This document shows, piece by piece, positions 4,306 to 18,625 of a stretch of 18,625 bases of DNA. Source of the stretch: Promethearchaeia archaeon (GTDB lineage Archaea; Asgardarchaeota; Lokiarchaeia; Sigyniarchaeales; SOKP01); the NCBI GenBank assembly GCA_046497275.1, contig JAWOFX010000059.1, positions 1-18,625 on the forward strand. The letters run 5' to 3'. Under the pieces are notes generated by a model. That model ran no database searches. It saw only the letters and a program-made list of their open reading frames with translations, and was not told where the DNA came from. How positions within the stretch are numbered: position 1 is the first letter of the stretch; every line of letters starts with the position of its first letter. A program made the translations under genes and the position numbers.

Positions 4306-6339
4306 ATGAACAAATTAAAAGTCCAAAGAGTAATTATTTTCAAACACGGAGTCAGCTATTTTATTCTCAATGGAAACATAAAGGGAAATGGTACATTTGA
4401 ACTTGAATTTAAAATCGATGAGATGAATGATGTATTAAAATCACTCTTTGTCTTAGATACGAGTGAAAAAGGTTTCATTTCCAGTATTTCATATGATGCT
4501 GCGTTAGAAACTTCTCAGTTATTAAAATCAATAATTCTTGAAGTTCCAGATAAAGATTCTTTAACATCTCTTCTTACTCAAATTAAGGGAGCAAATGTTA
4601 AATTAACTTTAGGAAATGACGTAGAAGAAGTTTCTGGGACGATTATGGGAATAGAATTGAATGAACAAATCAGAAAAGAGATGAAAATAACTGAAAAATT
4701 ATTAGTATTACTGAAAGAAAATGGTGTAATTGTAAAACTTCCTTTTTCAGAAATATCTTCTTTCGATATTCTTAATGATGAAATAAAGAACGATCTTAAA
4801 TTCTACTTAGAAACCATAATCGCAAGTAAAAAGAAAGATAGTAAAAATATAATAATCAATTGCGAATCAGGGGGAAATGATAACATAAGTAGAGAAATCA
4901 TTGTGAGCTATATTAGAGAATCACCAATATGGAAAACTTCTTATCGTTTAATAATGAGTAAACAACAGAGTGAACGTGAAGCAGCTCTCCTTTCTGGATG
5001 GTGTATGGTTGAGAATACAACTAATCAAGACTGGGAAGATATTGAACTTACACTAGTGGCGGGAATGCCTGTTTCATTTATATATGATTTTTATCGACCA
5101 ATCTTTATTAAACGTCCAAAAATTGAACCTCCAAAAGTAATAAGTGCGACTCCAACAGAAATTGAAGAAGGTTTTGTTGCTGATGAATATAAAGAATATG
5201 CTAGGGAAGCGGAAATGGCTCCCTCTGGACCTCCTATGATGAGGGCAAAAAAAGCCGCATATGTAGGGGGCGGATTTAAAGCTGCTCCCTCCCCAACGGC
5301 ACGAATGGATGATAGTACACTTTTAGATAAAGTAAAGGCATCGACGAAAACCCAAATAAAAGATTTAGGAGAATTATTTGAGTATAATATCTCCAATCCT
5401 GTTTCTATAAAAAGAAAGAAAAGTGCTCTTGTGCCTATCTTAACAGAAGAAATTAAAGCTAAACGCATTCTTTTATATAATAAGACTGAACATGATAAAA
5501 ACCCGAATGCATGTCTTGAAATCACTAATAATACTAATTTAACTTTGGAAAGAGGGCCAGTCACTCTAGTATATGATAATAATCTCGCGGGAGAGGCAAT
5601 CATCCCATTTATGAATAAAGAGGATACCAGATTGTTAAATTATGCAATTGAACAAGCGGTTGTAATTAATACGGAAGAAAAAACAGAAAATAAGAATATC
5701 CATAAAATATCATTCGGAGGAGCTTATTGCTATGAATATTATTATACTAATCTATTAAGCACCTACAAGATTAAAAACAAAACAGAAGAGATAAAAGATT
5801 TATATATTGATCATCCCAAGAAATCACAATATGCAATCATCGAAAAACCAATTGAACCGGAGGAGACAGATAATTATTGGCGCTTTAAACTGACTTTGAA
5901 ACCAAAAGACGCTATAGAATTTAAAATTCTCGAGCAGAAAGAAAATTATACCAGTTATAATATTTGGAATTGGAATAAAGAGGATATCTTAAATAGAGTC
6001 TCTTTTTATATCAGAAAAAAATTCATAGATGAAAAATTAGAAAAAGAATTAAAAGAAGTTGCTGAATTAATTGGGAAAGTGAATTCTTTAAATCAAGAGA
6101 AATCAAAATTAGAGAATGAACGAGATGATCTTACAACTGAACAAGAGCGTCTACGTGAAAATATTTCTGTGTTAGGAAACACTACTCAAGAAGCCTCTCT
6201 AAGGGAAAAATACGTAAAAAAATTGTCAACCCAAGAAAATCGCTTTGAGGAGATTAGAGATAAAATTGATGAATTAGATAAAGAAATAAAGGAATTAAAT
6301 TCACAAATAGAAGAAAAAATTAATAATTTAAAAGCATAA
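4306..6339 (+). CDS. DUF4139-like protein with C-terminal coiled coil
   Basis: 677 aa; WKTSYRLIMSKQQSEREAALLSGWCMVENTTNQDWEDIELTLVAGMP resembles the DUF4139 core; C-terminal heptad-rich region ELKEVAELIGKVNSLNQEKSKLENERDDL... Confidence 0.6.
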   Translation: MNKLKVQRVIIFKHGVSYFILNGNIKGNGTFELEFKIDEMNDVLKSLFVLDTSEKGFISSISYDAALETSQLLKSIILEVPDKDSLTSLLTQIKGANVKLTLGNDVEEVSGTIMGIELNEQIRKEMKITEKLLVLLKENGVIVKLPFSEISSFDILNDEIKNDLKFYLETIIASKKKDSKNIIINCESGGNDNISREIIVSYIRESPIWKTSYRLIMSKQQSEREAALLSGWCMVENTTNQDWEDIELTLVAGMPVSFIYDFYRPIFIKRPKIEPPKVISATPTEIEEGFVADEYKEYAREAEMAPSGPPMMRAKKAAYVGGGFKAAPSPTARMDDSTLLDKVKASTKTQIKDLGELFEYNISNPVSIKRKKSALVPILTEEIKAKRILLYNKTEHDKNPNACLEITNNTNLTLERGPVTLVYDNNLAGEAIIPFMNKEDTRLLNYAIEQAVVINTEEKTENKNIHKISFGGAYCYEYYYTNLLSTYKIKNKTEEIKDLYIDHPKKSQYAIIEKPIEPEETDNYWRFKLTLKPKDAIEFKILEQKENYTSYNIWNWNKEDILNRVSFYIRKKFIDEKLEKELKEVAELIGKVNSLNQEKSKLENERDDLTTEQERLRENISVLGNTTQEASLREKYVKKLSTQENRFEEIRDKIDELDKEIKELNSQIEEKINNLKA

Positions 6340-6846: not shown

Positions 6847-8145
6847 TTAAATTCCAGCCATTTTATATAAGGTTCTTAACGCTCTGCTCATAATATATTG
6901 CTGAATTTGACGTGATCCTCCTACAATTTCCTGAATTCGAGAGATGTTTATATAATCATGCATAAGAGTATTATCGCATAACCCTGCACCTCCCATCGAG
7001 TTCCCTGCTTCATAACATACTTCTTCCGAAAGTTTAGTTGCTTGATATTTCAACTGCGAGGCAGATGCAACCATCACTTGTTGTATATTTCCAGGAATCT
7101 TCATATCTCCCCCAAACTTTTCAACTTTTTCATCATAGGATTGGCAGAATTTAAGCATTCCAAGTGTTAAATTTGTTGTCCTCGCCCATAAATCCGTTAA
7201 TAAAAAACCTACTCCTTGAAATTTGAGGATTAACTGGTTAAATTGTTCCCTTAGGTTTGCATAAATCACTGCATGAGCAAGAGAACCCCAACATTGAGCA
7301 ATACTCATTATTGCGATGGAAATTCTTTCTGGAACTAAACCTTCAAACATATATTCACGTCCTTTTCCAACACCCCCGAGAACATACTCCTTAGGAACGT
7401 GTACATTTACTAATTCTTCTTTTCCTAAATATAGTTTTGGAACCCATGGAATATTGACGCGTTCAGCATTAAAACCATCCCATCGTGTATCTATTAAGAA
7501 TTGAGCCATTTTCCCTACATTATTGGCCTCTGTAGTCGCATAGCATACTACATAATCAGATCTGGGGGCATTAGTATTATAAATCTTAGTTCCATTTAAA
7601 ATAAAACTTCCATCTTCTTGTTCCTCACAAGTAGTAAGTTGATGAAGGGCATCAGATCCTCTCTCTGGTTCTGTAATTAAAATTGCTCCAGGAGTTTTTC
7701 CTGTTACCATAGCTTTTAATGCTTCTAGTCTTTCGGACACATTCTCATGATGCCAATAGACTGGATTTACCGCCAACACTGTAGCTCCACTGCCCATTAG
7801 GAATTGTGGTGAAAACATATCAATTGCCAAAGTTCTTAAAAATTCTGCTGTTAATCCCCAATAATCATAATTGACATCAATCATCTCAAAATTATGCGCT
7901 CTCGTTATATATCCTTCTTGTCCGAAATCCTCTACCCAATCATAAATATCCTCTTCAGGTCCATGTTTTATATTATTTTTCTTTTGATATCTTTGACAAA
8001 AACGTTGAACTCCTTTTAAAAAATTAAATTCCTCGGGTTCAAGGATCGTCATCAGATTTGTATTTAGAAAAGAATAGCGGTTTTTCAAACTTAATTTTTC
8101 AAGTATTTCGTCATTAATTGCTTGTGTTTTAAACTTTTTTGGCAT
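6847..8145 (-). CDS. Acyl-CoA dehydrogenase family protein (paralog 1 of 3)
   Basis: 432 aa; ILITEPERGSDALHQL, VPERISIAIMSIAQCWGSLAHAVIYANLREQF, EIVGGSRQIQQYIMSRALRTL. Confidence 0.92.
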   Translation of the reverse strand: MPKKFKTQAINDEILEKLSLKNRYSFLNTNLMTILEPEEFNFLKGVQRFCQRYQKKNNIKHGPEEDIYDWVEDFGQEGYITRAHNFEMIDVNYDYWGLTAEFLRTLAIDMFSPQFLMGSGATVLAVNPVYWHHENVSERLEALKAMVTGKTPGAILITEPERGSDALHQLTTCEEQEDGSFILNGTKIYNTNAPRSDYVVCYATTEANNVGKMAQFLIDTRWDGFNAERVNIPWVPKLYLGKEELVNVHVPKEYVLGGVGKGREYMFEGLVPERISIAIMSIAQCWGSLAHAVIYANLREQFNQLILKFQGVGFLLTDLWARTTNLTLGMLKFCQSYDEKVEKFGGDMKIPGNIQQVMVASASQLKYQATKLSEEVCYEAGNSMGGAGLCDNTLMHDYINISRIQEIVGGSRQIQQYIMSRALRTLYKMAGI

Positions 8146-8425
8146 TTTTCTCTCACTGAAATTTAAGATTTCAATTCAATTATAACATTATTTTTTAAAT
8201 ATTATAAATAATTACTATTTTTTCTAAAAATAGGCATTGAAAATGCAGAAAAGTTTAAGAGAGATATGAAAATATTTACATAACCTAAAAATATTCTTGA
8301 AAAATGCTTGAAAATTATAATTTTTAGTTTCTTTCTAAATTAGACTTCACTCAAAAATAAATGAATTATTATGAAAAAAAGATCAAAAAAAATAAAAAAG
8401 AAGATTAAAATTGTAATTAAATGAC

Positions 8426-9733
8426 TTATACTGACATTTTAAAGAGAGTACGTAATGCTAATGACATTATATATTGTTGAATTTGACGTGAGCCTCCTAC
8501 AATTTCTTGGATACGAGAAATCCCGATATAATCGTACATGAGAGTATTATCACATAATCCTGCACCTCCCATTAAGTTCCCAGCTTCATAACATACATCT
8601 TTACAAAGAGATGTACAATGGAACTTTAACTGACTCGCAGCAGAAACCATTGCTTGGCTAATATTTTTTGGTATTTTATCTTCTCCTCCAAATTTCTCAA
8701 CTTTTTCATCATAGGCTTCGCAAAATTTCAGTAAAGCTAATGTTAAATTGGTTGTTTTAGACCATAATTCAGATAAGAGAAAACCGACTCCTTGAAACTT
8801 GAGAATTTCTTGATCAAATTGTTTTCTCATATTAGCATATAAAGCTGCATGAGCAACAGATCCCCAACATTCGCATATTGCCATTATTGCAATTCCAATC
8901 CTTTCAGGAACTAAACCCTCGAAAAGATATTCTCTTCCCTTCCCCACTCCCCCAAGAATATACTCTTTTGGAACGCGAAGATTTTCTAGATGTTCCTTTC
9001 CTAAATAAACCTTAGGAACCCATGGAATGAAGACTCTCTCACAATTCCAACCGTCCCAATCAGTATCGATTAAAAATTGCGCCATCTTGTTGCCGTTATT
9101 GCGTTCTGCGGTCGCATAAACCACTGCCCATTTAGATCTGGGAGCGTTAGTATTGTAAATTTTATCTCCATTAATTATATAACTCCCATCGGCTTGTTCA
9201 TCACATGTGGTTAATTGATGGACTGCATCGGATCCTCTTTCAGGTTCTGTAATACATATACATCCAGGTGCATCACCGACAACTAAATCTTTCAAGGCTT
9301 CCAATCTCACTGGGACATCTTCATGATGCCAATGAAGTGGATTAATAGCTAATACAGTAGCTCCACCTGCCATGGCAAATTGTGGATCAAACATATCCAC
9401 TGCAAGATTTCTCATCATTTCAACAGTTAACCCATATTCTTCAAAACCCGTATCAATTTCCTCAAAGGGATGAGCTCTAGAAATGTATCCTTCTTTTCCG
9501 AAATCATCAATCCAATCATAAACATCCTCTTCTGGTCCATGAGTAATTTCGTTTTTCTTTTCAAATCGCATACAGAATCTTTGAACATTTCTAAGAAATC
9601 CAAATTCTTCTTGAGTTAAAATACTCATTAGATTATTATTAAGGAAATTATATCGATTTTTTAAGCTTAATGCTTCTAAAATTTCATCATTTATAGCTTG
9701 AGTCTTAAACTTTTGACCCATATTTCTTCTCAC
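8426..9733 (-). CDS. Acyl-CoA dehydrogenase family protein (paralog 2 of 3); the start may be the internal MGQKF
   Basis: 435 aa; same motifs as neighbouring ORFs (ITEPERGSDAVHQL, VPERIGIAIMAICECWGS, EIVGGSRQIQQYIMSLALRTL). Confidence 0.92.
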   Translation of the reverse strand: MRRNMGQKFKTQAINDEILEALSLKNRYNFLNNNLMSILTQEEFGFLRNVQRFCMRFEKKNEITHGPEEDVYDWIDDFGKEGYISRAHPFEEIDTGFEEYGLTVEMMRNLAVDMFDPQFAMAGGATVLAINPLHWHHEDVPVRLEALKDLVVGDAPGCICITEPERGSDAVHQLTTCDEQADGSYIINGDKIYNTNAPRSKWAVVYATAERNNGNKMAQFLIDTDWDGWNCERVFIPWVPKVYLGKEHLENLRVPKEYILGGVGKGREYLFEGLVPERIGIAIMAICECWGSVAHAALYANMRKQFDQEILKFQGVGFLLSELWSKTTNLTLALLKFCEAYDEKVEKFGGEDKIPKNISQAMVSAASQLKFHCTSLCKDVCYEAGNLMGGAGLCDNTLMYDYIGISRIQEIVGGSRQIQQYIMSLALRTLFKMSV

Positions 9734-9903
9734 ATATTTTACTAATTATTTTTATTAAAATTTAGCAGTTAAAACAGCTAAGTTTAATTATATGCTTTGT
9801 TAAAGAACTATAAAAAGTTATAAAAATATAATCATAACTTTTCTAATAATAAGAAAAATAATAATAAAAAGAAGATTTGGTATTGAATGAATTAAGTAGT
9901 TAT

Positions 9904-11199
9904 TTATACTGACATTTTGAATAGTGTTCTTAATGATAGAGACATAACGTATTGCTGTATTTCAGTACTACCGCCAATAATTTCCTGTATTCTTGAAATA
10001 TTTATGTAGTCATGCATGGGTGTGTTATCACATAATCCTGCTCCACCCATTAAATTCCCTGCCTCATAACAAACTTGCTCAGAAAGTTTGGTGGCATGAT
10101 ATTTAAGTTGACTGCCTGAAGCAACCATTGCTTGCTGAATATTTCTTGGGATATTCTGATCACCACCAAATTTTTCAACTTTCTCATCATAAGATTCGGT
10201 AAATTTAAGCATACCTAATGTTAAATTTGTAGTTTTTGCCCATAAATCAGTTAGATGAAATCCTACACCTTGAAACTTCAGTATCTCTTGATTAAATTGT
10301 TCTCTTAGATTAGCATATATAGTAGCTATAGATAATGCTCCCCAGCATTGAGAAATGGCACCCATAGCAATACCTACTCTTTCCATAACTAAACCTTCAA
10401 ATAGATGTGTTTTTCCTTTACCAATTCCTGCTAAGATATATTCTTTTGGAACTCTTACGTTATTTAATTCTTCTTTCCCTAAATAGAGCTTTGGGACCCA
10501 AGGTATTCCAACACGCTTTACATTAAAACCATCCCAATTAGTATTTATTAAGAATTGTCCCATTTTATTACTATTGTTTTTCTCTGTGGTAGCATATCCA
10601 ACCACCCATTTGGATTTTGGTGCGTTGGTATTAAAGATCTTTGTTCCGTTAAGTAGAAAGCTACCATCATCTTGTTCTTCACATTCTACTAACATATGAG
10701 TAGCATCTGAACCGCGCTCTGGTTCTGTAATAAGAATAGCCCCAGGAGTTTTTCCAGTAATCATTTCCTTCAATGCTTCTAATCTAACAGGCACATTTTC
10801 GTGATGCCAATGAATAGGATTAGTTGCTAATATCGTGGCTCCAGCACCCATAGCGAATTGAGTATCAAAATTATCTATTGCTAAATATCTAAGAAAATCA
10901 GCAACAGCACCATGAGGTTCATAATTTTGGTCAATTTCATCATATGGATACATTCTTGAGATATATCCTTTCTCTCCAAAAGTAGGAATCCAATCATAAA
11001 TGTCCTCTTCAGGGCCGTGAGTTATCTCATTCTTCTTTTCAAATCGCATGCAGAATCTTTGAACTTCTTTGAGAAAATTGAATTCATCAGGACTTAATAT
11101 CGCCATTAAATTATTATTAACGAAGTTGTAACGATTTTTTAAGCTCAATGCGTCTAAGATTTCGTCATTAATTACTTGAGTTTCAAATCTTTTTGCCAA
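9904..11199 (-). CDS. Acyl-CoA dehydrogenase family protein (paralog 3 of 3)
   Basis: 431 aa; ILITEPERGSDATHML, VMERVGIAMGAISQCWGAL, EIIGGSTEIQQYVMSLSLRTL. Confidence 0.92.
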   Translation of the reverse strand: MAKRFETQVINDEILDALSLKNRYNFVNNNLMAILSPDEFNFLKEVQRFCMRFEKKNEITHGPEEDIYDWIPTFGEKGYISRMYPYDEIDQNYEPHGAVADFLRYLAIDNFDTQFAMGAGATILATNPIHWHHENVPVRLEALKEMITGKTPGAILITEPERGSDATHMLVECEEQDDGSFLLNGTKIFNTNAPKSKWVVGYATTEKNNSNKMGQFLINTNWDGFNVKRVGIPWVPKLYLGKEELNNVRVPKEYILAGIGKGKTHLFEGLVMERVGIAMGAISQCWGALSIATIYANLREQFNQEILKFQGVGFHLTDLWAKTTNLTLGMLKFTESYDEKVEKFGGDQNIPRNIQQAMVASGSQLKYHATKLSEQVCYEAGNLMGGAGLCDNTPMHDYINISRIQEIIGGSTEIQQYVMSLSLRTLFKMSV

Positions 11200-11311: not shown

Positions 11312-12064
11312 TTAAATGATTAAATTTCGCAACCTTTGTGAAAATTTTTTAGTAGTAATTAAACTAGTTTCGAATGGACAATTTTTCTTAAAAAGGATAA
11401 CAGATATAAAATGCTCATCAATTCCTTTTAGGGATAATATCCCAAAATCTTCTAATGAGATTAATTCGGTAATTTTGTAATTACCCGTCATAAATCTTCC
11501 TTCAAGAAGGCGTATAATTTCAGACAAAACATTAGGATCTAAATAAGAGACAATAACTCTTCCCGTTTGGGTTAATAAGGCGGAAGAAACAACATACACA
11601 GAAAACGTTTGTAATTCATTGAAAATTTTTATAATATCTTCCTTTACATCATCAGAGACTAATTGTTTATTATTTTCTAAAATATTTTCAATATTTGCAT
11701 CAAAATCATTAAATTTGGAAATCTCTCCATCAAAATTATGAGTTAACGAATCTTCATCAAACTTCTCTAGGAACTGAGCTTTAACTTCACGTAATTGATT
11801 ACGAAGTTCCACTAAATTATCTGTCCGATCCGCAAAAAGAGCAAATAAAAGTTCATCTCTTCCCATTCGCTCTATTTCAAATATGAATCTAAATGGGCCC
11901 ACCTCAATTTCTGAAAGCTTCTCAGTTTTTAGGGTTTGCTTAACAAAAGAAAAAATAGCGCTTAAAAAGCTACTGGTTAATTTTACATCGAAAATATCTT
12001 CATAGGTTTTATAAAAGATTAGCTCACCCGTGTTGCCTTTTTGTATGAATACGTTTTTAATCAT
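11312..12064 (-). CDS. Longin-like N-terminal plus roadblock/LC7-like C-terminal protein, possible small-GTPase regulator
   Basis: 250 aa; N-terminus GNTGELIFYKTYEDIFDVKLTSSFLSAIFSFVKQTL...FRFIFEIER resembles longin strands; C-terminus VSSALLTQTGRVIVSYLD...ISLEDFGILSLKGIDEHFISVILFKK resembles roadblock folds. Confidence 0.55.
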   Translation of the reverse strand: MIKNVFIQKGNTGELIFYKTYEDIFDVKLTSSFLSAIFSFVKQTLKTEKLSEIEVGPFRFIFEIERMGRDELLFALFADRTDNLVELRNQLREVKAQFLEKFDEDSLTHNFDGEISKFNDFDANIENILENNKQLVSDDVKEDIIKIFNELQTFSVYVVSSALLTQTGRVIVSYLDPNVLSEIIRLLEGRFMTGNYKITELISLEDFGILSLKGIDEHFISVILFKKNCPFETSLITTKKFSQRLRNLII

Positions 12065-18185: not shown

Positions 18186-18283
18186 AATTTATTTCGTTTC
18201 TAAATTCATTTAGTATAATTTATGGTATATAAGATGATTTAAAAATTATTTCACAGCAATAATTATGATTTTTTTAAAAGAAA

Positions 18284-18481
18284 GGTGTTCAGCCACATAG
18301 AATAAGCGTTTCTGGGTTCGGAATGGGACCAGGTACTATCCGATGTTGCTATGACCGTGAGCGAACTCACAGCTTAGTATTTCCCACTGATTTCAACAGA
18401 AGTACTATTACTAACGCAACAAAGTTTAACTTCCAGCGCTTTAGCGTGTAGCTACATCTTATGTGGCTACGAACATACACC
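18284..18481 (-). ncRNA. Predicted precursor of the permuted 5S rRNA with paired 5' leader and 3' trailer
   Basis: Leader GGUGU(18481-18477), UC(18472-18471), AGCCACAUA(18468-18460), AAGCG(18441-18437) pair with trailer ACACC(18288-18284), GA(18290-18289), UAUGUGGCU(18299-18291), CGCUU(18308-18304). Confidence 0.75.
18310..18430 (-). rRNA. 5S rRNA, circularly permuted: 3' segment 18430->18366, UUCG linker 18365->18362, 5' segment 18361->18310
   Basis: Minus strand contains the loop C signature CCUGGUCCCAUUCCGAACCCAG, CACGGUCAUAGC (start of the 5' domain) and, upstream of these, GGAAGUUAAAC...GUUAGUA...AGUACUU...CAGUGGGAAAUAC...GCUGUGAG (the 3' domain). Helix I CUGUGAG/CUCACGG is capped by UUCG; helix II GCAACA/UGUUGC; UUAGUA/UACUAA closes the third arm. 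Reassembled length is 117 nt plus the 4-nt cap. Confidence 0.88.
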
Positions 18482-18501
18482 ATATTCATTTTTTAAGTCT
18501 C

Positions 18502-18520
18502 TCAATTTCTTGGAAATTGA
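18502..18520. repeat. Perfect inverted repeat TCAATTTC-TTG-GAAATTGA
   Basis: 8-bp arms around a 3-nt spacer, about 20 nt upstream (minus sense) of the predicted 5S leader stem. Confidence 0.8.
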
Positions 18521-18625
18521 TAACTTAAAACATTATGGTTTTTTAGGTAAATAATTGTAATAATGTCTAATAATTAAAGTTTACTATGGAAAACCATTAA
18601 ATTTAAAAGGGATAAGTGTTCGGAT

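Follow-up and report, generated by a model that had tools for sequence, protein, structure and literature searches.

A circularly permuted 5S rRNA gene lies on the reverse strand of a Lokiarchaeial contig, at positions 18430 to 18310 of the window (the whole 18,625-nt stretch of DNA analysed, contig JAWOFX010000059.1 of assembly GCA_046497275.1, Promethearchaeia archaeon; Lokiarchaeia, Sigyniarchaeales, SOKP01). Computed directly are the permutation itself, a conserved and covarying bulge-helix-bulge (BHB) geometry, the restoration of the canonical 5S sequence for two different breakpoints and the occurrence of mini-introns in relatives. We put at roughly 0.75 the probability that the permuted RNA is excised at the BHB by EndA, the archaeal tRNA-splicing endonuclease, ligated by RtcB to a 121-nt ring and most likely used by the ribosome as a circle. 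The enzymes, the cleavage, the ligation and the circle as final form are what we infer from these sequence comparisons.

Results and discussion

The permuted gene

The first part of the unit comprises the 3′ part of helix III, the 3′ strand of helix II, the gamma domain (helices IV and V) and a capped helix I. It is followed by loop A, the 5′ strand of helix II, the 5′ strand of helix III, loop C and the sequence CCAGAA. The new ends are located in the AA bulge of helix III, and the UUCG cap (18365-18362) links what an ordinary 5S rRNA has as its free 3′ and 5′ ends. The coordinates of the gene and of its flanking elements are collected in Table 1.

Table 1. Elements of the permuted 5S rRNA locus in the window (within bulges a slash marks the predicted cut)
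Feature	Sequence	Position	Strand	Basis or remark
Permuted 5S coding unit		18310..18430	-	121 nt; split, swapped Rfam matches, colinearity after rotation, covariation
Helix I hairpin	CUGUGAG-UUCG-CUCACGG	18355..18372	-	sequence and comparison with relatives
Helix H, leader strand	CUGG	18433..18436	-	pairs with CCAG 18315-18312
Helix H, 5S-side strand	CCAG	18312..18315	-	pairs with leader CUGG 18436-18433
Leader bulge	AA/G	18430..18432	-	predicted 5′ cut between 18431 and 18430; G18430 is the first nt of the excised RNA
Trailer bulge	AA/A	18309..18311	-	predicted 3′ cut between 18310 and 18309
Outer helix h, leader strand	AAGCG	18437..18441	-	pairs with CGCUU 18308-18304
Outer helix h, trailer strand	CGCUU	18304..18308	-	pairs with AAGCG 18441-18437
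Leader hairpin	UAGC-UACAC-GCUA	18442..18454	-	between outer stem and h; kept in relatives
Outer stem, leader strand	AGCCACAUA	18460..18468	-	pairs with 18299-18291; starts at about the predicted transcription start
Outer stem, trailer strand	UAUGUGGCU	18291..18299	-	pairs with 18468-18460
Outermost stem of the earlier description	GGUGU	18477..18481	-	with ACACC 18288-18284; uncompensated in relatives
TATA-box-like motif	CTTAAAAAA	18489..18497	-	about 26 nt upstream of outer stem; putative promoter
Oligo-T run	TTTCTTTT	18276..18283	-	directly after trailer; putative archaeal terminator

At the Rfam gathering score (38 bits) no single colinear match to RF00001 was obtained in the window. Under an E-value threshold two abutting 5S matches appear on the reverse strand with their order swapped: model positions ~1-52 at 18362 to ~18309 (28.4 bits) and ~52-120 at ~18432 to 18364 (18.4 bits). 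None of 17 permuted loci reaches the gathering score, against about 77-81.5 bits for the normal 5S genes used as controls (L056, L121 and L125; 81.5 for L056). The permuted loci score poorly because their gene order is rotated and not because their sequence has diverged. Once rotated, the unit is colinear with the canonical 5S of L056 and with 15 rotated relatives; with the predicted ends joined and the cap opened, it aligns with the canonical 5S from end to end. The three-domain fold is present, with loop A (CAUAG), loop C (CCCAUNCCGAAC), GAAGUUAA and loop E (AGUAC ... GGGAA). RNAalifold applied to a MAFFT alignment recovered helices I, III, IV and V with covariation, 15 of 22 pairs showing double-sided changes. 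Helix II was missed on this unrefined automatic alignment and is discernible by eye (GCAACA/UGUUGC).

Eighteen distinct homologous loci were assembled, 15 from Lokiarchaeia/Promethearchaeota and 3 from a Heimdall-labelled lineage. In all of them the 3′ part precedes the 5′ part and the native termini are bridged by a four-nucleotide cap (in L141 after removal of an insertion), mostly UUCG, with CUUG, UUUG, UUAG, CUCG and CGCG also found. The helix I stem of the relatives has 7-8 bp (L139 pairs 6 of 7), and the unit measures 120-121 nt, lengthened to 150-154 nt in genes with an insertion. A pseudogene or an assembly artefact was considered and ruled out: synteny, promoter- and terminator-like signals and structure-preserving substitutions are kept across many independent assemblies, including the records CP070831.1 (3.3 Mb) and CP070805.1 (2.3 Mb).

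The loci differ in how they were reached. L118 came from a scan of genome contigs with the pattern GGGAA..CATAGC..YCCCATNCCGAAC; it was the only useful one among the matches listed, the pattern having caught ordinary bacterial 5S genes with a chance GGGAA upstream. A metagenome scan gave 14 matches (5 permuted 5S, 6 normal 5S followed by another structured stretch and 3 chance matches) and supplied L124, L130, L132 and L134. Its pattern required GAAGTTAARC, which biases the leader bulge of those four loci toward AA. L135-L146 were found through synteny with a neighbouring 174-aa protein or a DsrE-like protein, a route independent of the RNA sequence, and because of the bias in the metagenome pattern the analysis was weighted mainly on loci reached through these proteins. 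A pattern scan of viral contigs gave 120 matches, all of them chance, and no permuted 5S.

The BHB motif at the new termini

A BHB-like junction leading to a circular 5S rRNA had been proposed in a sequence-only reading of this locus, and the coordinates it proposed for the stems, bulges and central helix are correct on the reverse strand for every element. The central helix H has 4/4 pairs, with G-U counted, in 18/18 distinct loci (100% of cells paired); its second pair is C-G in 9, U-A in 6 and U-G in 2 of 17 aligned sequences. In the mature fold the CCAG strand of H instead forms distal helix III with CUGG 18332-18329, inside the 5S unit. Two 3-nt bulges sit on opposite strands, each 3′ of its H strand. 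In all loci a clean bulge of 3 nt separates H from the outer helix h on the trailer side. The three leader nucleotides that follow H stay unpaired in the strict register, but open into a loop instead of a closed bulge. The nucleotides predicted to be retained are conserved: the two A's of the trailer bulge correspond to the AA bulge conserved in helix III and, like the retained G of the leader bulge, are invariant in type A loci (breakpoint in helix III, as in the window). Those predicted to be discarded vary, the third trailer nucleotide being A, G or U and the leader pair AA or, in L137 and L141, AG. Helix h begins straight after the third bulge nucleotide and has 2-11 bp in all loci; all six h pairs counted show two-sided changes.

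The strict inner helix h′ has 0 bp in every locus. If a 2-nt leader bulge is allowed, h′ has 3 bp (GUU/AAC) in Lokiarchaeial type A loci, 1 bp in Heimdall-labelled loci and 0 bp in type B loci (breakpoint in loop C, below). The motif at the new termini is a relaxed hBH (bulge-helix-loop) and not a strict hBHBh′, in keeping with the earlier remark that the exon-side helix is weak and the motif relaxed. Since h′ is absent, leader-side cleavage would depend on a broad-specificity enzyme. Asgard archaea have been reported to possess a broad-specificity (alpha-beta)2 EndA, whose L1 loop is linked to relaxed-BHB cleavage; relaxed motifs are reported to require (alpha-beta)2 or epsilon2 EndA (PMC5829648).

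A cut after the second nucleotide of each bulge yields a 120-121-nt unit with a canonical 5S junction in 18/18 loci (150-154 nt in the insertion-bearing genes). For the window, joining 18310 to 18430 gives CCAGAA^GUUAAAC (the caret marks the joint), which is the normal helix III sequence in a unit of 121 nt, as had been predicted.

Outer stem and putative transcription signals

The outer stem is kept in relatives, with compensatory changes (CAACCGCAUA/UAUGCGGUUG in L118 and ACACCUUA/UAAGGUGU in L142). The leader hairpin is found in 15/15 Lokiarchaeial loci and covaries (GUAGC/GCUAC, ACAGCG/CGCUGU, AGGC/GCCU, AUAG/CUAU); we note that this hairpin (18454-18442) does not figure in the earlier description. 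That description placed GGUGU/ACACC as the outermost stem. The pairing exists in the window and is uncompensated in the close relatives L124 (ACAAC) and L135. GGUGU sits between the TATA-like motif and the apparent start site, probably upstream of transcription start, and the GGUGU/ACACC pairing probably lies outside the functional structure.

A TATA-like motif occurs at equal distance in the relatives, of the CTTAAAAA / CTTATATAA type in all Lokiarchaeial loci and as CTTTAAAA in the Heimdall-labelled loci. T-runs also follow the trailer in relatives. The locus has the appearance of a stand-alone transcription unit, with a putative promoter and start site.

Comparative support and energetics

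The same BHB register is present in 18/18 distinct loci, compared with 0.1-0.6% of alternative cut-site pairs. Each locus allows only 3-15 BHB-compatible solutions out of 2601, and the register that restores the canonical sequence is invariably one of them. Scanning naively for BHB-like motifs gives much noise (20-30 per 150 nt); the motif is significant only because it coincides with junction and insertion boundaries that were defined independently. Leader and trailer covary in the relatives, the comparison to which the sequence-only reading had looked: 89.4% of leader/trailer cells are paired compared to 75.4 ± 1.9% in shuffles (0/500 as high), with a covariation score of 0.407 observed and 0.169 shuffled, statistics which treat kin sequences as independent and thus overstate independence. 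In slid-register controls 18-40% of cells are paired. Helix III also constrains the 5S side of H, so some of the covariation seen in H belongs to the mature fold as well.

The fold z-score of the window sequence alone is only -1.93. Single-sequence minimum free energy (MFE) folds usually favour native helix III over H and display the BHB only in L142. Under constrained folding the BHB conformer lies 0-3.5 kcal/mol from the MFE and equals it in L142. It is by comparative data, and not by any single sequence, that the BHB structure is judged to exceed chance.

A second breakpoint and mini-introns

Four loci (type B: L138, L139, L140 and L143) have homologous leader and trailer and a breakpoint 16 nt away, in loop C. 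The BHB register shifts along with the breakpoint. The identical cut rule places the type B cuts at CCGG-UC/A and CCGG-AA/C and gives GGUC+CCAUCCGAAC, the canonical loop C, in a unit of 121 nt.

Seven related genes (L135, L138 and L141-L145) carry insertions of 29-33 nt at five sites. Five of the seven insertions are perfect BHB mini-introns, whose cuts exactly restore the sequence of intron-less relatives (motif background 0.54%). Those of L141 and L145 fit a BHB with only 3/4 H pairs and are probable introns; the L141 insertion, 33 nt long, sits in the helix I cap, and its removal by the BHB rule regenerates a CUCG tetraloop. In all, the cut rule gives back the canonical sequence at 18 junctions, of two types, and at the five perfect mini-introns. 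On account of the mini-introns alone, these 5S precursors would already be acted on by the splicing endonuclease and ligase. Together with the positive covariation test and the loop C breakpoint class, which obeys the same rule, the mini-introns support the interpretation of the locus as a BHB-processed, circular 5S rRNA.

Proposed maturation

We propose that a precursor of ~190 nt folds with its leader pairing to its trailer, forming the outer stem, the small leader hairpin and helix h. The leader CUGG would take the 3′-terminal CCAG of the 5S from its normal helix III partner, thereby creating the relaxed BHB. EndA would then cut after the second nucleotide of each bulge (Table 1) and RtcB would join the resulting 2′,3′-cyclic phosphate and 5′-OH ends. 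With the joint CCAGAA-GUUAAAC the AA bulge of helix III would be back in place, and leader and trailer, ligated to each other as a by-product, would read ...GCGCUGGAA^ACGCUU.... As helix I is already capped by the UUCG tetraloop, the excised and ligated 5S would be covalently closed, a 121-nt ring with the normal three-domain fold, most likely entering the ribosome as a circle. A circular product would leave the genomic breakpoint free to move, and two positions are indeed seen within homologous flanks. That the mature ribosome-bound 5S of Lokiarchaeia and at least one Heimdall-labelled lineage is a covalent circle made by splicing from a permuted gene stands, in our estimate, slightly above even odds.

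The circle may be an intermediate, made by BHB cleavage and ligation and then re-opened elsewhere, for instance at the helix I cap, to give a linear, conventional 5S. Permuted tRNAs mature via a circle, and the 23S rRNA of P. furiosus is circularised and subsequently opened at helix 98 (PMC7758197; PMC10085705). The L141 insertion likewise indicates that the cap can carry extra processed sequence; its excision by the BHB rule would however leave a closed tetraloop and not open ends. No conserved single-stranded or BHB-like signal is found at the cap across the 18 loci, where it is uniformly a tight four nucleotides, and E. coli ribosomes accept a helix I closed by a tetraloop (PMC7283268). We consider re-opening unlikely. 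Slightly less likely again is a permuted 5S that remains linear, trimmed near the predicted sites and never ligated, the nicked molecule being held together by helix III pairs. The DNA gives no proof of ligation, and the brown-algal mitochondrial 5S rRNAs are permuted in their final product too (PMC4267664). EndA-excised archaeal rRNAs, on the other hand, are reported to be circularised (PMC12918454). With a type A nick, proximal helix III would be held by no more than 2-3 bp (GU/AC), and a type B nick would put the free ends within conserved loop C. That canonical sequence and length are restored exactly at two breakpoints is expected for ligation and needless for a nicked molecule, and the BHB introns in seven related genes require a ligase acting on the same RNA.

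Leader-trailer helices are common around rRNAs, and the flanking stem might thus be a generic processing stem for other nucleases, its likeness to a BHB being coincidental or the relic of a duplication. At loci with the palindromic CCGG, a duplication relic and a complement are indistinguishable. In the six CCAG loci, though, the leader 4-mer is CUGG, which is the complement and not a copy of the 3′-terminal 4-mer. We accordingly rejected leader CUGGAAG as a decayed tandem-duplication copy of CCAGAAG, the leader being the complement wherever the two can be distinguished. All 18 loci show exact spacing, with 4 bp in H, a bulge on the 3′ side of either H strand and h following the third bulge nucleotide immediately; the register shifts with the type B breakpoint, and slid registers lose pairing. 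A generic stem is on these grounds very improbable. We retain excision at the BHB and ligation to a ring as the preferred reading.

Comparison with known systems

The permuted SRP RNA of Thermoproteus tenax is circularised by the tRNA-splicing endonuclease and a ligase and functions as a circle (Plagens et al. 2015, eLife; PMC4731332). Both systems concern an essential, universally conserved structural RNA in rotated order, with a splicing-endonuclease site flanking its new termini; the native topology is regained on ligation (for the 5S, as predicted), and in both the canonical gene was reported 'missing' from annotation. They differ in the RNA and lineage, SRP RNA in Thermoproteales and 5S rRNA, a ribosome component, in Asgard archaea. 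The permuted 5S is further distinguished by its tetraloop-capped original ends, two breakpoint positions and BHB mini-introns. Circularity is experimental for the SRP RNA and only predicted for the 5S. Permuted tRNA genes (Cyanidioschyzon merolae; Thermofilum pendens, PMC3218864) share the order of 3′ half and 5′ half, the flanking BHB and a circular RNA. RNase P and tRNase Z open the tRNA circles again to give linear tRNAs, whereas the permuted 5S shows no visible signal for re-opening.

Archaeal pre-16S and pre-23S rRNAs carry a BHB in the leader-trailer stem, at which EndA cleavage and ligation give circular rRNAs, and circular 23S has been reported inside archaeal ribosomes (PMC7758197; PMC12918454). 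Their genes, unlike the permuted 5S, are unpermuted in the DNA. Archaeal 5S has been stated not to be processed through circularisation, in contrast to 16S and 23S (PMC12918454). The brown-algal mitochondrial 5S is also a natural molecule of rearranged connectivity missed by standard models, in which, however, a terminal hairpin replaces helix I, the three-way junction is open and the RNA is linear, without BHB or ligation (Valach et al. 2014; PMC4267664). The Asgard loci retain both strands of helix I, joined by a cap, and have their ends in helix III or loop C. Ribosomes are functional with an engineered E. coli cp5S in which a 4-nt connector links the native ends and the opening lies in loop C or D (Huang et al. 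2020; PMC7283268). It resembles the present RNA in the 4-nt bridge between native ends; it is artificial, bacterial, covalently inserted in 23S rRNA and not circular.

In the searchable literature we found no archaeal permuted or circular 5S rRNA. If our reading is correct, three things would be seen for the first time: a circular 5S rRNA, a permuted 5S gene outside organelles and introns in a 5S gene. 5S rRNA is held to be small, near-invariant, linear and autonomous. The probable ring would join a short list of functional circular RNAs and would mean that the 'moonlighting' tRNA-splicing machinery serves a third class of essential RNA as well. Ribosome biogenesis in these lineages is of particular interest because they are the archaea most closely related to eukaryotes. 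Authors working on circularised Asgard genomes reported that 5S genes 'could not be predicted' (PMC8813620). Rotated gene order, if our reading holds, would account for undetected 5S genes in Asgard genomes, and a permutation-aware model would complete rRNA annotation and the quality scoring of metagenome-assembled genomes (MAGs) in these lineages.

Permuted 5S rRNA gene

At the Rfam gathering score no match was found anywhere in the window. At an E-value threshold two adjoining partial 5S rRNA matches were obtained with their order swapped: model positions ~1-52 align to 18362..~18309 (28.4 bits) and positions ~52-120 to ~18432..18364 (18.4 bits). This order makes it a circularly permuted 5S rRNA gene, whose new ends fall within helix III at its conserved AA bulge (CCAGAA / GUUAAAC). 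The leader, body and trailer elements that the sequence-only reading described for 18481..18284 on the minus strand are present in the sequence as claimed and are collected in the table.

Elements of the permuted 5S unit in the window and insertions in homologous loci (L handles, other contigs)
Element	Position	Strand	Remark
TATA-like motif	18497-18489	-	~26 nt upstream of outer stem; position kept among relatives
Outer stem, leader strand AGCCACAUA	18468-18460	-	read from sequence
Small leader hairpin UAGC-UACAC-GCUA	18454-18442	-	read from sequence; consensus GUAGC-N5-GCUAC; between outer stem and bulge-helix-bulge
Leader AAGCG	18441-18437	-	read from sequence
Leader CUGG	18436-18433	-	read from sequence
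Leader AAG	18432-18430	-	read from sequence; 5S-like body next
UUCG tetraloop closing helix I	18365-18362	-	sequence
CCAG	18315-18312	-	end of 5S-like body
AAA	18311-18309	-	3' of CCAG
Trailer CGCUU	18308-18304	-	read from sequence
Outer stem, trailer strand UAUGUGGCU	18299-18291	-	then GAACACC and oligo-T run
Oligo-T run	18283-18276	-	3' of trailer; position kept among relatives
Insertion in loop C	L135 (locus ~1090-1118), L142	- in L142
Insertion in gamma-domain hairpin	L138, L143, L144
Insertion after GUUAAAC	L145
Insertion in helix I cap	L141

Genomic context and relatives

The window (G+C ~30%) encodes archaeal Spt5, aIF1A, two Ras-family small GTPases and three tandem acyl-CoA dehydrogenase paralogues. 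The last are very similar ORFs of 431-435 aa at 6847-11199 on the minus strand; the one scanned (6847-8145) has Pfam acyl-CoA dehydrogenase domains. Pfam gave no match at E <= 0.001 for a 677-aa protein with a long coiled-coil-like C-terminal tail (4306-6339, plus strand) or for a 250-aa protein (11312-12064, minus strand); a 170-aa ORF antisense to the former gene (5091-5603) is probably spurious.

Directly downstream of the 5S unit lies a gene for a 174-aa membrane protein ('MPKKY') with 90 homologues, of which those labelled by taxon are all Lokiarchaeota/Promethearchaeota or other Asgard. The window comes from a Lokiarchaeial (Asgard) genome. The order 5S unit, MPKKY protein, Glyoxalase_4 protein is kept. 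Because of this synteny, contigs L135-L145 were fetched through homologues of the MPKKY protein, a route independent of the RNA sequence, and a permuted 5S adjoins the MPKKY gene in 11/11. One further locus, L118, came from a genome scan with an unspecific pattern, and four (L124, near-identical to the window, L134, L130 and L132) from a metagenome scan with a permutation-specific pattern; L146/L147 were added via a DsrE-like neighbour protein. In total 18 distinct permuted 5S loci were obtained.

L130, L132 and L146 form a second lineage (~35% G+C) whose proteins cluster at >=90% identity with those of 'Candidatus Heimdallarchaeota archaeon'. One TPA MAG of this lineage carries the label Bathyarchaeia; a conflict in binning or labelling is the likely reason. 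Loop C is divergent in L130, L132 and L146/L147 (CCCGUCUGAUC / CUCGUCCGAUC where others have CCCAUCCGAAC), and a simple 11-bp leader-trailer helix abuts the junction motif. The small leader hairpin is absent from this lineage; it occurs in 15/15 Lokiarchaeial loci with compensatory changes.

Bulge-helix-bulge at the junction

The junction was defined independently of any bulge-helix-bulge (BHB), by the two cuts that give back a canonical 5S. In every locus all four bases of a leader 4-mer pair with the four nucleotides ending 2 nt before the 5S 3' end (central helix H), three unpaired nucleotides follow each H strand on its 3' side, and an outer helix h of 2-11 bp begins right after the third nucleotide of the trailer bulge. 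H is formed by CUGG/CCAG in 6 loci, CCGG/CCGG in 8, CUGG/CCGG in 2, and UCGG/CCGG and CCGG/UCGG in 1 each. BHB-compatible cut pairs number 3-15 of 2601 per locus and always include the canonical-restoring pair. That the leader 4-mer might be a mere relic of duplication is argued against by its sequence: where the 5S ends in CCAG the leader has CUGG, the complement and not a copy.

Covariation of leader and trailer across relatives had been named beforehand as a test, and the outcome was positive. In a gap-free alignment of 30 nt covering h, H and the bulges, 89.4% of cells pair vs 75.4 +/- 1.9% in shuffles (0/500 reach it), and the covariation score is 0.407 vs 0.169; the sequences are related, which makes both shuffle statistics generous. 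Double-sided changes are seen in 6/6 h pairs and in one pair of H, a helix on which helix III also places some constraint. Pairing falls to 18-40% when the partner strand is shifted by 1-3 nt. Variation is seen in the nucleotides that would be discarded (AA or AG in the leader; A, G or U at the third trailer position); those that would be retained are invariant among loci with the window's breakpoint (type A).

In strict register an inner helix h' is absent from the loci examined. The motif is therefore the relaxed hBH form, as had been suspected. If a 2-nt leader bulge is allowed, h' has 3 bp in Lokiarchaeial type A loci, 1 bp in the Heimdall-labelled ones and 0 bp in type B (breakpoint in loop C).

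Second breakpoint and putative mini-introns

The outer stem AACCACAUAAA/UUUAUGUGGUU and the leader hairpin are common to the type B loci L138, L139, L140 and L143 and to type A loci such as L134. In the four type B loci the coding unit has at its 5' end a 16-nt block, CCAUCCGAACCCGGAA, which in type A loci such as L134 lies at the 3' end. The placement of this block at opposite ends within homologous flanks shows that the breakpoint has migrated inside a common leader and trailer. The BHB is shifted along with it (leader ...GCG-CYGG-AA/C, trailer side ...CCGG-UC/A-CGC...), and the same cut rule yields GGUC+CCAUCCGAAC, the exact loop C of type A relatives, in a unit of 121 nt. A moving breakpoint with a constant processed product is what would be expected were the product joined into a circle. 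The CCGG of helix III is a palindrome, either strand of which is able to form a BHB.

Seven genes would give excised units of 150-154 nt, vs 120-121 nt elsewhere, because they contain insertions of 29-33 nt, at five sites in all. The insertions are unrelated to each other in sequence. Five of the seven have a perfect BHB (H 4/4, h' 2-5 bp) placed so that its cuts would give back precisely the sequence of relatives without the intron; in cut pairs of intron size the motif has a background frequency of 0.54%. Those of L141 and L145 fit a BHB with 3/4 H pairs. With the insertions removed, 18/18 predicted products are 120-121 nt, which would make the precursors endonuclease and ligase substrates independently of the permutation. 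The insertions look like the first BHB mini-introns in any 5S rRNA gene.

Folding and transcription unit

Rotated products align end to end with the canonical archaeal 5S of L056, an ordinary 5S gene (Rfam 81.5 bits). Their consensus fold shows helices I, III, IV and V, with double-sided changes at 15/22 pairs; the helix I cap is 4 nt in all cases and UUCG in most. At minimum free energy the precursor from the window folds with native helix III in place of H (z-score -1.93, modest). Forcing the BHB costs 0-3.5 kcal/mol in six loci, zero in L142, and leaves helices I, II, IV and V formed.

The TATA-like motif and oligo-T run would place the transcription start and stop sites. The outermost GGUGU/ACACC pairing proposed by the sequence-only reading fares poorly, as it is uncompensated in L124 and L135 and, with the start judged from the TATA-like motif, lies upstream of the transcript. 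Two more motifs resembling promoters, CCCTTTTAAATTTAATGG and AAACTTTAATTATTAG, lie upstream of this putative promoter at 18500-18625 (minus strand), together with an inverted repeat (CAATTTC...GAAATTG); a AAAGTTTAATTATTAG-type motif stands ahead of the 5S unit in the majority of Lokiarchaeial loci inspected, among them L118, L134-L137 and L139-L145. The region could be regulatory or could encode one more small RNA.

Proposed circularity

We propose that the archaeal splicing endonuclease EndA would cut at 18431/18430 and 18310/18309, that RtcB would join the ends left and that the resulting 121-nt circle would be the mature 5S. Computed support comes from the permutation, the conserved covarying BHB geometry, exact restoration at two breakpoints and the BHB introns in the same genes. 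Asgard archaea are reported to have an (alpha-beta)2 EndA with an L1 loop, a class linked to relaxed-BHB cleavage (PMC5829648), and archaeal rRNAs excised by EndA reportedly become circularised (PMC12918454). The permuted SRP RNA of Thermoproteus offers the closest parallel: the splicing endonuclease cuts it, its ends are ligated, and it works as a circle (PMC4731332); permuted tRNA genes and circular or permuted 23S rRNAs have the machinery in common. A circle is probably formed at least transiently (roughly 0.8). It could be re-opened before reaching the ribosome; the chief argument to the contrary is that the UUCG-type cap is tight and shows no processing signal. Ribosomes of E. coli tolerate a 5S in which a 4-nt connector links the native ends (PMC7283268). 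We lean slightly towards the circle itself being the ribosomal form.

An archaeal permuted or circular 5S rRNA, or a 5S BHB intron, was not found in full-text searches, which covered few subscription journals. The only 5S cited in a 2023 list of naturally permuted RNAs is the mitochondrial one (PMC10085705); the 'permuted' mitochondrial 5S of brown algae is linear and differently arranged (PMC4267664). Permutation and circular forms go unmentioned in a survey of prokaryotic 5S insertions. The Rfam threshold is reached by 0/17 permuted loci, in agreement with a study of circularised Asgard genomes in which 5S genes 'could not be predicted' (PMC8813620). Detectable 5S genes are reported for some other Asgard MAGs, thus the trait is not universal in Asgard. 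The metagenome contigs L121, L122, L125, L127, L128 and L131 carry ordinary 5S genes (Rfam 77-80 bits for L121/L125), each followed directly by a conserved G+C-rich stretch of ~100 nt that starts with GGCCAUAGCGGCUAG (loop A-like) and includes a UUCG hairpin.
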